From: Octopus vulgaris
Lineage: Eukaryota
DNA: 64,000 nucleotides
Direction: 5' to 3'
Assembly: GCA_951406725.2 (NCBI GenBank)
Contig: OX597830.1
Span: 50,778,001-50,842,000, forward strand
Shown: piece by piece, positions 3,761-62,350 of the stretch
How the letters are laid out: every line of letters starts with the position of its first letter
How positions within the stretch are numbered: the stretch's first letter is position 1
Program-made: the position numbers and the translations under genes
Notes under the pieces: generated by a model
Database searches by the model: none
Told to the model about the DNA's origin: nothing
What the model saw: only the letters and a program-made list of their open reading frames with translations

Positions 3761-6700
3761 GATATTTGTGCTTCAGCAACTCAACGCTGAATTTGTCCGA
3801 AAGGTAATCGAAAATAGTTTAGTTTCAAAACATTGATGTTCAGGTTAGAAAAGCAAAGTTTAAAGTGAATAGTAATCATTTTCTTTGATTCCTAGATAGA
3901 AGCAAATAGGAAATAGCACTTACTGACCATAGGAAAGAAAAAGAATTTTGTTACACAGTGTAAACTTTCAGGTTTGAGTATAAATCCTGGCCACCTCAAT
4001 GTGAATTTTCATTTTCCCAATGTCACTCGGTAATTATTCTAATCTGTTGACTTGTATAGTTTATGTTATGGTTCATTGGCAGAATTGTAAGTGCATCGGA
4101 CGAAACGACTACTTACGCTTCTTCAAATTGCTAGCTTTGTGTCAGAATTTGAATCCATTATTATCAATAAATAAACTCTACGTGCGTGTGTGTATGTGTG
4201 TGAGTATTTGTGTTTGTTATATGTTCGTCTGAATACATACGTACATACATTTATACATACATACTCACACGAACACACACAAAGGCACATACACGTTACT
4301 CTCCTGAAGCGGATAGAACACATGGCATCAACCAAATATCATCGAGGTGGTATTTGCAGTTACGATATGAAGTTGTGACTTAACCAGTATACATTGCTAT
4401 TTGTAGGGTACGCTGTCAATGGATAAGTATAACGAACAACATCCCAGTTATGAAAAGCTTTCATACATATTAGCCTAAGGATTATTGGAGGAGAATTTCT
4501 GTCAAAACTTTTATTATATGCAAACATGGTGTCATTTTGAATTCGGAGGTCAAACAATAAACCTCATCTAATACCACAGTAGTTTGCCGCACTACAATGG
4601 TGAGAATCTCTTCCAAACTCGGCGACAAAAATATCAGAGGACAATCACTTCGAAACCTGCAGTTGCTCTACTCTATGAATTTAAATTCATACCAATAACC
4701 AATACATCATACAGTGCACTTGGCTAACATATTCATTATAGATACAATCTGTAAGAGGAACAATAAAAATATGGAAGACTTTTCTAAATTTCTACGCATA
4801 ACAATTATCATTATTGTCATCCCAATTCCAATGAATGAGCATTTCTTTTCTTCTTTATTGTTGTTAGAAACCACTTCTTCCTTTCAGAAAGAGCACTAAA
4901 TGATATATTAAAGATGTAATGCATATATACACACATACGTACATATATACATAGGCGCACACAAAATCGACACACGTATGCACGCGCTCACGCACGCGCG
5001 CACACACGCACACACACACATATAGGTGTCTGATTTGTTCGGGAGGATGTATAGTATTTAATTATATATTATCTTGATAGTTAGGGGAAATCCCCGCTGT
5101 TTCCTCTGGAAAACACATTTGCTGAATCCATTATTACAATCTAATATGTATTCTGGTTTGCGGCTGTATTTTTAGTCAAAATAGATATCAAAAGGTAAGA
5201 ATTATGGAAATATTATTTGCAGAGTTATTGTATAGCAAAACAGGAAAATGAAAGTTTTTTGGAAATATATATTCACCATTACATGTGTTTCATTTGCTAA
5301 TAGGAATTACAACATTTTACATGTTAGATAAACATGTAAAGAATTTCCTATTAGAAATTGTTCAGACAGTAAAATTAAATAATAGTATTTAATCATATAA
5401 TTTTATTAAAACAAATGGATCTTCCTCGACAATAATTATTCCATTGTTCGAACAGCTGATGTATTTGCTCGTTGTATTACTGTGGGAATAATTGAACATT
5501 CTACCGACAGTTTCTGTCTACCTTATTTCACTTACAATACATTACTGGAACCGTGGTTATGGTAAAAGAAGCTTACTCAAGAAACGATACACAGAAATTG
5601 AAACCGGCAGCTCTGGATGTTCAGCAAAATTTCTCAACTTTCGGGCATCCGTATTCGTTTCTTTGACACAATTGAGTTAACATAGATGAGATAGTTAACG
5701 TATTTAATGTATCGAGTATAAAAAAAATCTGAAAAGTGATAATTATGTTGTGAGGAAAATCAAAATTAGACGTAGACGAATATCGATTTGAATAGGAGCA
5801 ACACCTGGCAATGCTTCGCATTTATTTGGACAATTTTCAGCGAAGCATGGGCTGCACCATAATTACCAAAATTAGTTACGGCAGAATGACAAAGTAGACG
5901 TACAATAATGTATAGTAAAAGTCGTAGAAAACTATTTTACCAGAGACCCCCCCCCCACATATATGTAAGACAATAGCTAACTCAGTATTGACATATATAT
6001 AAGACAATAACCAAAAAGAGCCCTGTGGAATAAAATATATATAAAACTATTTATTGTCAGTGTATAATGTGTAATTATATATTTCCTCAATCTAGTGTAT
6101 AAATGCTACAATTATTGAATGAAGATTAAGTAAACCGTACAGGTAGATATCCTACATTTACTGCCCTTTGGAAGTTTGATTCCAATTATCACAGTTAAGA
6201 ATCAATTCTTCAAACGTTCTTCTCTGAGGTATTTCAATTCCCGTGTTTCACGCATGACGTCACCATAGTAATTAGAAATTATAAACCACGTGATATCACT
6301 GTGGGCAAAATAACACTGGTGATTCACTTCGAAATATACTCTGGCGAACCGAAGCAAGATTAGATTTTACTGCGTAATATTAAAATCCCAGAAGCAAAGG
6401 TGATTCTGTGCATCAAGAAAACGTGATAGGTGTATTTGTTTTCGTAAACACGTTAAGAAATAACACATTACTGATAAATCTAACGATAGCTTACACGTGG
6501 ATACGCACACATGAATCTGTGCGTACATATGCAGGTTTGAATGTGTATGCGTGAATCTGTGTATGGATGGGTTTTTTTCCGAACTGAAAAACAAATCAGT
6601 GACTGCAATAAAACACAACGCATATACTTCAACTTAGTTTTGATAATAATGATAATAATAATAATAATAATAATAATAATAATAATAATAATAATAATAA

Positions 6701-6808
6701 TAATAATAATAATAATAATAATAATAATAATATTAATAATAATAATAATAATAATAATAATAATAATAATAATAATAATAATAATATAAATAATAATACT
6801 AATAGTAA

Positions 6809-6947
6809 CAGCGACAGCAAGGATTATCAGGAGAGTTCTAAGCACTTGAAAGACTGCTGAAAACTTGTAGATACGTAACGTTACGGGTAGTAACCCGCTA
6901 CCAAAATAAATCCTGACAGGAATAAAACCGAACCTAAGCCAAACCAA
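6809..6947 (+). mobile_element. R4/Dong-clade LINE, extreme 3' end, flanked by (AAT)n
   Basis: Encodes TARIIRRVLST* (Dong-type C-terminus, compare GTSHVLRRALSM* and GTAHILRRTLSIQ*) plus a 3' UTR. (AAT)n on both sides. Confidence 0.7.
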
Positions 6948-7017
6948 AATAATAATAATAATAATAATAATAATAATAATAATAATAATGATAATAATAA
7001 TAACAACAATAATATAT

Positions 7018-7503
7018 TGATGCAATACTACGCAATGGCTCCAATGGCTTCTGATCTTAACCGATTGGAAGTGTTATCATGTACTTGCCTTGTCTTTGTG
7101 TAAATGATGGCCTAGAGCAAATATTCTGCTCAATACCACAAATTTGCTTTTCATTTGTTTGAGCTTAACCACTTCAGGATGTCCCTCAGTGGCTGACGAT
7201 ATGTGCAACTCCGATCATGAGCAGAAGTAGTGGAGAGCATTCATAGCCATGTGTTAGTAGGAATTATTTGGGGTTTAATTACTTCACTTCTGGAAACATG
7301 GGTTTTTCGTTTAGCATTCTTAAACAAAATTCATTCAAGGTCATGTACTGTTTATCTTGATATGATATCACCCTGTAGTGCACATATGGTTGTGATGCAT
7401 GTGCCTGGTGTGCATTTATCAGGCGGGTTGTCATGATGGGTATTTGGGAATTCGTATATTCCTACCCTAGTGTCACTTTAATGGCATGCACTTCTCTCTC
7501 ATT
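7018..7503 (+). mobile_element. ~500 bp non-coding element X inserted in (AAT)n
   Basis: Diverged reverse-complement homologue of 9167-9690, with the same 5' start (TGATGCA.TAC) and 3' end (CTCTCTCA.TC). Microsatellite flanks. Confidence 0.7.
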
Positions 7504-7596
7504 CAAAATCAACATCATCATCATCATCATCATCATCATCATCATCATCATCATCAACAACAACAACAACAACAATAATAAAAATAATCGTTAAAA

Positions 7597-60200: not shown

Positions 60201-60756
60201 TAAAATGCCGTGGGTTGCAGTCGCAAATAATTATCATGAAAACCGAAATTCACGTATATCGTGGAAGTTATGGGTATAAAGTGGGACTAATGTCTGTGGC
60301 GGTGAAGAGGGAATTTTTTCTCTTGCTTATTTTCTTCGTAACCTCTGTGAATCCGTCATCTGAAGATGCTTCATCGTCAGCCAGTTCCTTGCTTGGGTTT
60401 GGTTCCTCTGTTTTCTTTTCAGTCTTTCTTGCAATTTTATCATAGTTTTGCTGATGATATCTGATTGATTCTACTCCCCTCTCTCCCTGAATCTATCTAT
60501 CTATCTATCTATCTATCTATCTATCTATCTATCTATCTATCTATCTACCTATCTATCTATCTACCTATCTATCTATCTATCTATCTATCTATCTATCTAT
60601 CTATATGTAGTTGAGGTTATAAGAGATGATGGAGTCATTGAGACCCAAAGGTGTCAGGTAATGCTGAATAAGTGCTATAGACAGACCATAATTATGTTCC
60701 AGATTCGGTAATATTGCGAATAAAGGGATCAACGTTGGTTCTATGTCAGCGTGTGC

Positions 60757-60894
60757 ATATAAGAATTTTTTGCGTAATAAGATAAAGCCCAAGATTGTAT
60801 AGATATTAGAACATTTAAACCCTTCTATCTACAAAAGCTCTAATAGCTATAGAATCTTGGTTTTTTATCTTATTAAGCAAAAAAATTCTTATAT
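60757..60894. repeat. Fold-back inverted repeat abutting (TA)n
   Basis: ~54 bp imperfect arms 60757-60810 / 60839-60894. Confidence 0.88.
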
Positions 60895-61499
60895 ATATAT
60901 ATATATATATATATATATATATATATATATATATATATATATATATATATATATATATATACACAGCTCGACGTAGCTCTGTTAATTAATCGTTAATTGA
61001 TGAAGTTAACATTTTCGCTAGCGATTTAACATTTAATTTATCTTTGAAGACCATTATCGGACTAATTAACTTCCATTACATTTAACCTCCGTTATCTCAA
61101 GTCCATTAACCAAAAAATTCTATACAAACCGGTAAACGTTTAAGAGTTTCAAATGTTTTCAGATTGCCTTAGCATATTGTAAGCGTCATTCTTTCACCCC
61201 CTATATAACGCCACTATAAATAACTTGTGGGACCTCGTTTGGCCCTGCTTGGATTTCAAACCAAATCCATCCGCTTATTGCTTGCAAATAGAGCGGGAAA
61301 TGTCTTTGTCCTGTCAAGAGGGAACATCATTCCATAAAATTTGTTGAAGTGGAGAAAAATATTGAAAAATATCAATAGATGTGTGAGAAGGAATTGAGGA
61401 GGGAGGTTTGGGGATGTGCTAGGAACAGCAGCCAGATCTCCCTTAAATCACCCATTTTCCTCTGAAATTATTAACATTTTCTTTAAAGCCAAAATGTTA

Positions 61500-62220
61500 C
61501 TCTCGCTGGCTATACCCGATATTGCTCCAATCTGGCCAGTTCCGAGGAAAATATAAGCTAAGAACATTACATTCCTTGGAAGAAAGCAGCGAATGTACAC
61601 GAAAACAAGGACGAAAAATCGGTGAATGTTACAAAAATACAAATAACAGGACATAACAACATGTGTCTTTCGACTAAGAACGAATTAAATTAAGCTGGCG
61701 TGTGTGGAAATAAAGATTTGTGACAGAGATACAAGATTTCACAGGCACAGGGAAGAATATAGCTATTGCACGGACGACGGCCGAACGAAGAAAGAAAGAT
61801 CAGGCTTGGTCGAACACCGGTCATGTGGGGAGAGAAGAGAGAGACGTAGAGGCAGAGGGACAGAAGAATTAAAGAGGGGCGAGAAAAACGTGACAGGGAC
61901 ACAGTGAAGTGAAAAGGGGAGAGAAAGGGAGCAGGAAGAGAAAGCAGGGACATGTGAGACAGGGGGAACGAAAGAACGAAAAGTGGAATGAACGAATAAG
62001 CGTGAAAAGGCCGATAGAAAGAAAGAATAGAGTCATACAAGATTAAGATAAATATACACTTACATATTAGAGACCGAAGAGTACATACGCCGCTATATAT
62101 ATATAATACAAAATAGTACAAGAATGCAAAACATCCATATATATATATATATATATATATATATATATATATCAATATATATATATAATACAAAATAGTA
62201 CAAGAATGCAAAACATCCAT
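61500..62220. mobile_element. Family P2 repeat (longer copy) with duplicated terminus in (TA)n
   Basis: Aligns with 23085-23308. ATATAATACAAAATAGTACAAGAATGCAAAACATCCATATA occurs twice. Confidence 0.6.
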
Positions 62221-62350
62221 ATATATATATATATATATATATATATATATATATATATATATATATATATATATATATATATATATATCAATTCAAATTA
62301 AGAAGAAAAATTAACGTGCACAAGCTTGACGTTCCATTAACAAAAAAAGA

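Follow-up and report, generated by a model that had tools for sequence, protein, structure and literature searches.

We analyzed a 64,000-nucleotide stretch of the Octopus vulgaris genome (contig OX597830.1, positions 50,778,001 to 50,842,000; hereafter the window) in which long interspersed nuclear elements (LINEs) of several families and a Penelope-like element (PLE) lie among many microsatellites. The window has a G+C content of 35.6% and holds 86 perfect microsatellite arrays of at least 18 bp, including 28 (AT)n, 20 (AAT)n and 7 (AGAT)n. A first-pass annotation had proposed that three retroelement classes divide these repeats among themselves. We consider it likely that three retroelement groups do insert into different pre-existing microsatellites, namely LINEs with a restriction-like endonuclease (RLE) into (AAT)n, an L1-group LINE family into (TATC)n and a PLE into (TA)n. 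Every flank count given below refers to the copies in the 64-kb window, which rather than the genome supply the denominator.

The most complete RLE LINE is a near-full-length element of the Dong/R4 type at 53739..57710 on the minus strand (A1), which has three open stretches, a frameshift near 56330 and an in-frame stop at 55637-55639. It matches Pfam RVT_1, its best relatives among solved structures are R2 proteins (E 8.5e-13), and its reverse transcriptase (RT) is followed by a CCHC finger, an RHD and a PD-(D/E)xK restriction-like endonuclease, in the order seen in R4 and Dong elements. By homology, the nuclease of A1 is predicted to be an RLE. The 439-aa N-terminal stretch contains no C-x2-4-C, that is, no N-terminal zinc finger, unlike R2; it has no Pfam match to a Myb/SANT-like domain, and a single-sequence model is all-helical with a mean predicted local distance difference test score (pLDDT) of only 48.8. 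Neither Rfam nor our own descriptor matched a 5′ hepatitis delta virus (HDV)-like ribozyme of the type expected in the R4/Dong clade, and the region folds at z -2.4.

Two 5′-truncated copies belong to the same family A, A3 (12282..13432, minus; 98.8% identical to A1) and A2 (11967..12250, minus; 93.6% identical to A1, and 94-95% when set against A1 and A3). Family B is represented by the 5′-truncated B1 (9757..10698, minus), by B2 (40850..41270, plus; 97.1% to B1) and by B3 (44171..44384, plus; 93-94% to B1 and B2). Older pieces are the RLE 3′ ends D (10782..11226, minus) and E (40150..40708, plus), an old relative of family A at about 80% whose microsatellite flanks are gone (A4; 41690..43645, plus), and the decayed RLE LINE C (57861..60190, minus), whose 5′ limit is uncertain. 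A probable older 3′ end, F (43870..44096, plus), was recognized by eye from its translation, and a probable short 3′ end, G (6800..6947, plus), was also recognized by eye. Arrays of (AAT)n lie on each side of A3, B1, D and G, and at the 3′ end only of E.

All six young copies (A1, A2, A3, B1, B2 and B3) have (AAT)n directly at the 3′ end, and five of the six have it at the 5′ end when at least 80% repeat over 24 nt is counted as a hit. The first-pass annotation had these copies flanked by AAT-type repeats on both sides, and this stands apart from the 5′ end of A1, where about 41 nt of degenerate in-register triplets precede pure (AAT)n. With (AAT)n at 1.42% of positions per strand, five 5′ hits would occur by chance with a probability of 5.8e-10, and of 1e-4 given landing in any microsatellite, figures to be read with the knowledge that the young copies are not fully independent. 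The polarity is fixed, as all 11 listed 3′ ends read AAT on the sense strand and never ATT. The truncation points of the four comparable copies differ, with microhomology of 3 nt (at the 5′ junction of A2), 0, 1 and 2 nt, and (AAT)n abuts these points at different positions along the element. Because such differing truncation points all abut (AAT)n in one polarity, we conclude that site-selective insertion of the RLE LINEs into (AAT)n is well supported; their copies in the window show the (TAA)n target of the R4/Dong clade. For the RLE copies the observation is real and far beyond chance. Insertion could in principle be random, with copies persisting in repeats by selection or repeats growing beside elements later, and a microsatellite does lie directly upstream of about 9% of window positions. 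However, matching in both class and strand has a probability of 1e-4 even given microsatellite landing, and none of five copies of a tRNA-type short interspersed nuclear element (SINE, described below) touches a microsatellite, and we hold random insertion to be very improbable.

The young copies also form head-to-tail chains. Five of the six sit directly behind another RLE piece whose 3′ array is their own 5′ flank: A1 after C, A2 after A3, B1 after D, B2 after E and B3 after F. Such an arrangement would be expected if the repeats were tails made by the elements, the 5′ flanks being tails of earlier copies and no independent target existing. A one-sided tail can indeed make an (AAT)n array, as seen at a LINE 3′ end at 32290..32541 (minus) whose sense strand carries (ATT)n on the 3′ side alone and which has an open 60-codon frame; we take this piece to be CR1-like, Pfam and Atlas having given no family. 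However, the five upstream pieces in the chains have unrelated 3′ ends, so that the repeat is what the landings have in common, and landing in one polarity would still need repeat recognition. In addition, no RLE piece was found upstream of the 5′ arrays of A3, D and G, the L1-group tails and the PLE discussed below have no upstream copy, and the duplication at the PLE and the block present in both flanks of one of those tails tie both flanks to a single array. We judge an origin of the repeats as tails alone to be improbable and favor site selection, in which the (AAT)n niche is partly self-made, given that five of six young copies lie behind another.

Of 18 merged (AAT)n arrays, including an imperfect one from 11227, 15 abut an RLE piece or an AAT-flanked non-coding repeat, and these pieces and the repeat together make up 23% of the window. 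The repeat, about 500 nt long, lies within the RLE chains at 7015-7503 (plus) and 9167-9688 (minus), with 81% identity between copies and (AAT)n in the RLE polarity. It is possibly a non-autonomous passenger of the Dong-type machinery; no 3′ end in common with the RLE LINEs was found. Flank blocks shared at A1, A3 and B2 were considered as target duplications and rejected, as they consist of common GAT units only. At A3, the first 7 nt of the element appear a second time in its 5′ (AAT)n flank, about 39 nt in (13425-13480), which suggests junction slippage or re-priming.

The PLE lies at 19904..21214 on the minus strand and comprises a C-terminal GIY-YIG region (20260-20880) and a 3′ untranslated region (UTR); this truncated copy is without RT. 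It carries the motifs of the Hydra clade, with a C-terminal GIY-YIG, a CxCX5C linker, CxxC and CxH and no CX2-5CxxC. Its nuclease is, by homology, predicted to be a GIY-YIG enzyme, the Pfam match being weak (E 0.01). An inverted truncated arm is 99.5% identical to the other arm, and one side has an extra terminal extension. A 13-bp target duplication, extendable to 15 bp, consists of (TA)n with a T interruption and lies exactly at both junctions (19891..19903 and 21215..21227, plus strand). The interruption within the duplication indicates that the (TA)n array was present before insertion. The 13 nt recur at 16435 and 21413, and their weight therefore comes from position. Site-selective insertion of this one real PLE into (TA)n is well supported.

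Within the PLE arms, a type I hammerhead-like fold whose core is a variant (U4 read as C) lies at 21119..21182 (plus), with a mirror copy whose core is at 20057 on the minus strand. The topology is complete for type I, with one core change and a bulge; there is no Rfam match, and of the helices only helix II appears in the minimum-energy fold. A loose hammerhead scan, with 17 matches that were mostly chance, was superseded by a strict full descriptor that matches only the PLE arms (21125 plus and 20057 minus), against 0.1 matches per shuffled window in 20 shuffles. Five Penelope or hammerhead-bearing sites had been proposed to abut (TA)n. The element at 19904-21214 does so on both sides, but the other four (22954, 30257, 30559 and 61500) are unproven as PLE or hammerhead, with no tblastn match to the PLE endonuclease and no complete hammerhead by the strict descriptor. 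At 30261 the hammerhead is partial, limited to core, helix II and GAAA. The nearest (TA)n run is 126 nt from 30257, 143 nt from 30559 and 539 nt from 61500; the pieces that contain these sites reach (TA)n, but their ends were set by eye at the repeat edge, which makes that contact circular. A repeat at 22954..23308 (minus) lies between (TA)n runs and is 72% identical to 61505-61713, and two 31-nt copies of its end lie within (TA)n at 62106 and 62187. Both may be candidate PLE ends. A tandem duplication at 62094-62269 copies the end of this same repeat family.

Two tails of L1-group LINEs lie in (TATC)n. T2 (45260..45778, minus) is 5′-truncated and consists of the last 49 codons and the 3′ UTR, and T1 (24303..24726, plus) is a 3′-UTR piece with (TATC)n on each side. 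They are 72% identical by column and 90% identical over 299 locally aligned positions, a likeness that does not fit one young family; T1 is either of a different subfamily from T2 or older. A first homologue search with the 49-aa T2 tail found none of four candidates, and metagenome scans returned no loci. With phmmer, the 49 codons at 45637-45783 gave 16 hits, among them P0002 at 72%; another, P0004, looks spurious. P0139, in the 90% cluster of P0002, is 74% identical to the T2 tail over 39 aa, and its best solved relative is human L1 ORF2p (E 1e-50). The characters of the L1 group, an apurinic/apyrimidinic endonuclease-like domain (APE), RT, a C-terminal zinc finger (zf-RVT) and L1 ORF2p as nearest relative, are found in P0139, the window itself holding only 49 codons. 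An Argonauta hians protein is 64% identical to a homologue of the tail. By homology, the nuclease of the T1/T2 family would be an APE. The family probably belongs to the Tx1 clade, a label that we assume from resemblance; none of the relatives found carries the name Tx1.

In run X1, 25,215 contigs match T2, 6,435 of them at 99% or more, and among the 40 rows listed, T2 departs from the depth-weighted majority at 3. This abundance and closeness to the majority indicate that the family is abundant and T2 probably young. Among the 7 of 270 loose-end rows listed, one (28 contigs) runs from the 3′ end of T2 into (TATC)n, and in two others (84 and 101 contigs) its frame goes on past 45780, from which it follows that T2 is 5′-truncated. 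Family-wide evidence for the target consists of both window copies and these 28 contigs at the 3′ end; the accessible text of PMC4494074 sets the mark for a family target preference at >20% of flanks. Raw-read runs X21-X23 yielded 4, 11 and 2 reads on 45234-45790, most of which were partial and fell in low-complexity stretches, and were uninformative; in X1, under the same species label, the family is very abundant.

Both tails had been described as flanked by (TATC)n. This is so for T1 on both sides and for T2 at the 5′ end, where the array is pure, but the 3′ flank of T2 is interrupted after 9 nt, and (TATC)n resumes behind the interruption. The interruption block (45226..45246, minus) has a second copy in the 5′ flank of T2 (45910..45930, minus), and this 21-nt core occurs nowhere else in the window. 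It is part of a 48-nt stretch shared by the two flanks, with four departures from the pure repeat, which starts 12 nt after the 3′ end of T2 and 153 nt before its 5′ junction. The pure run may have grown after a duplication of about 29-62 nt, or T2 may have entered between two blocks duplicated earlier; on both readings the (TATC)n array predates the insertion. Two 5′ (TATC)n hits have a chance probability of 1.5e-5, or of 1.9e-3 given microsatellite landing. On the basis of two copies and one shared interruption block, site-selective insertion of the L1-group family into (TATC)n is moderately supported.

Placement at (TATC)n could also arise if the L1-group RNA ended in (UAUC)n and annealed to genomic (GATA)n, with no APE that reads sequence. 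A templated tail would fit the 3′ (TATC)n in 28 contigs among the loose-end rows listed, and junction microhomology of 2-3 nt is present at the 5′ end of T2; moreover, a SINE with the same 3′ end, without a TATC tail, lands elsewhere. Against this, the 3′ flank of T2 runs for 9 nt before it meets a block that recurs in the 5′ flank, so little of that 3′ flank can be RNA tail, and the available part of PMC4494074 ascribes Tx1 target choice mainly to the endonuclease. We regard annealing as a rather unlikely explanation and prefer entry into an existing array through a selective nuclease.

That SINE is the abundant tRNA-type element mentioned above (1216-1447, plus; 36838-37073, 38114-38344 and 26336-26744, minus), labeled by eye from its promoter-like boxes. 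It shares its terminal ~45 nt with the (TATC)n-flanked LINE. Over the last 50 nt there are 31-37 matches to T1 and T2, a score that 0 of 300 shuffles attained in any of the eight comparisons, and four other element ends showed no match to the SINE 3′ end. Four of the five copies are followed by GGT, and two have duplications of 11 and 15 nt that start with GGT, in non-repeat DNA. A partnership of this SINE with a T1/T2-related LINE of different target is probable. Since a SINE with a LINE-like 3′ end avoids (TATC)n, the preference is a family trait within the L1 group. We tentatively suggest that an octopod L1/Tx1 lineage might have evolved (TATC)n specificity with array-lengthening duplications of about 29-62 nt, and that a sister lineage might carry the tRNA-type SINE to non-repeat sites starting with GGT.

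Several observations weigh against insertion of three groups into distinct pre-existing repeats or against a strict division of the repeats among them. For the RLE LINEs, these are the position of five of the six young copies behind another RLE piece, the lack of a convincing target duplication at any of the six, and the older pieces, of which only two of eight keep 5′ (AAT)n and five keep it at 3′. The CR1-like (ATT)n tail means that an (AAT)n array has a supplier or user outside the RLE group, with reversed polarity. In the L1 group, the window has two copies only, of different subfamilies; any two microsatellite landings share a class by chance with a probability of 0.14, no duplication is readable at T1, the sequences immediately upstream of the two T2 blocks differ by one base and one unit, block duplications occur in the window without an element (46161-46414), and among the 7 of 270 loose-end rows listed from X1 there is no 5′ truncation into (TATC)n. 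Only about 6 of 28 (TA)n arrays touch a PLE-like piece, as judged by eye, and most have no Penelope. Finally, the tRNA-type SINE, partner of an L1-group LINE, stays clear of microsatellites in all five copies.

A strict three-way partition is therefore overstated and not supported. The first-pass annotation reported no cross-occupancy among young copies, which is true of six RLE copies, two L1-group tails and one PLE, but not of the whole landscape; a (GATA)n array at 60491 was considered as a case of cross-occupancy by C and rejected, as C is old and its homology stops near 59990-60190. Its assignment of nuclease classes holds up by homology, with an RLE motif in A1, APE in P0139 as a close relative of T2, and GIY-YIG in the PLE. 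The further idea that each nuclease owns a repeat niche is too strong, in view of the CR1-like tail, the SINE partner and the many (TA)n arrays free of PLE-like pieces. Repeat preference belongs to families, not nuclease classes, and the repeats have other sources too. That insertion regenerates the repeats is suggested by the single case of T2 and by the RLE chains.

Taken together, three unrelated retroelement groups would insert by target-primed reverse transcription into distinct pre-existing microsatellites. Dong/R4-type LINEs would nick (AAT)n in one orientation, with new copies often landing behind older ones, so that head-to-tail chains build up; a Hydra-clade PLE would enter (TA)n with a 13-15-bp duplication; and an L1-group APE family, probably of the Tx1 clade, would enter (TATC)n and duplicate part of the array. 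The flanks, their polarity, the protein classes, the PLE duplication and the shared block at T2 are observed directly; we infer that it is the nucleases that recognize the repeats and that arrays grow longer by insertion. Together with the Dong chains in (AAT)n, the (TATC)n lineage tentatively suggested above would mean that retroelements create much of the tri- and tetranucleotide microsatellites of octopus genomes, as well as landing pads for themselves. A (TATC)n-targeting APE family would extend the L1/Tx1 range by a new target, and with its SINE partner would allow closely related endonucleases that differ in target to be compared. Should insertion lengthen arrays, the activity of these elements would account in part for how abundant microsatellites are in cephalopods, where (AAT)n and (GATA)n markers would often have repeated flanks.

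Other features of the window include a second abundant SINE-like repeat with internal (TA)n and (CA)n (48815-49145, 50717-51081, 33968-34289, 19480-19735 and 23865-23965), which is a further microsatellite source and contains several other (TA)n arrays. At 62094-62269 and 46161-46414, microsatellites anchor tandem duplications of 82 and 101 nt. Stretches bounded by inverted repeats (14628-15485, 47607-47769 and 60757-60894) are probably remnants of old DNA transposons or miniature inverted-repeat transposable elements. Between element C and the (GATA)n array, 60190-60490 holds a charged reading frame, perhaps part of another element. An Rfam scan of the window gave no matches at gathering level and repeat-driven matches only at a loose E-value, and Atlas searches led to clusters without a family name.

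Two of the three pairings confirm published rules, now in an octopod. The pairing of Dong with (TAA)n is already published, molluscs included: according to PMC7998251 Dong targets (TAA)n in most insects, molluscs and cnidarians, and PMC3812793 lists Dong, DongAg and DongBg among (TAA)n-targeting elements, in line with what the first-pass annotation stated for Bombyx Dong. The RLE LINEs of the window resemble Bombyx Dong, DongAg, DongBg and ostracod Dong in RT and C-terminal RLE, in the lack of an N-terminal zinc finger and in the target. Unlike these precedents, several distinct families share one target here and form head-to-tail chains, and no 5′ HDV-like ribozyme was detected. The Dong ribozyme cleaves at the 5′ junction, according to the accessible text of PMC3774820, which means that 5′ repeats are not carried in that RNA. 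Table 1 of PMC13282606 ranks Dong-R4 as the largest recently active LINE group in Octopus vulgaris, with 1129 insertions; this annotation counts recent Dong-R4, L1-Tx1 and Penelope insertions and contains no target analysis in its accessible portion.

The pairing of Hydra-clade PLEs with (TA)n is likewise already published, nearly all families of the clade inserting there by the part of PMC8557442 available. The window PLE shares with them GIY-YIG, CxCX5C, CxxC, CxH, an inverted truncated arm, a one-sided extension and the (TA)n target, and differs in its variant hammerhead core, its readable target duplication and its lack of RT. For Tx1, the microsatellite-targeting families Kibi and Koshi, correctly named beforehand, insert in (TC)n and (TTC)n, and a crocodilian Tx1 in (TTCC)n/(TTTC)n, as listed in the accessible text of PMC4494074. 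Like them, the T1/T2 family is L1-group, APE-encoding, flanked by one microsatellite class and T/C-rich on the sense strand; unlike them, it has TATC as target unit and a mollusc host. We found no paper on a TATC, AGAT or GATA target of Tx1, which Repbase, Kojima and Fujiwara 2004 or supplements may record, and no target-site analysis in cephalopods; the (TATC)n target, seen in two copies and one table row, may be unreported.

Broader parallels come from outside the retroelements. In the available sections, SaTar MULE arrays are element chains built by microsatellite targeting (PMC5907723), and endogenous nimaviruses have different enzymes tied to different repeats (PMC10871703). SaTar MULEs are DNA transposons and nimaviruses large DNA viruses, unlike the retroelements here, but the window resembles both in its chains of unrelated elements formed through microsatellite targeting and in its enzyme-linked repeats.

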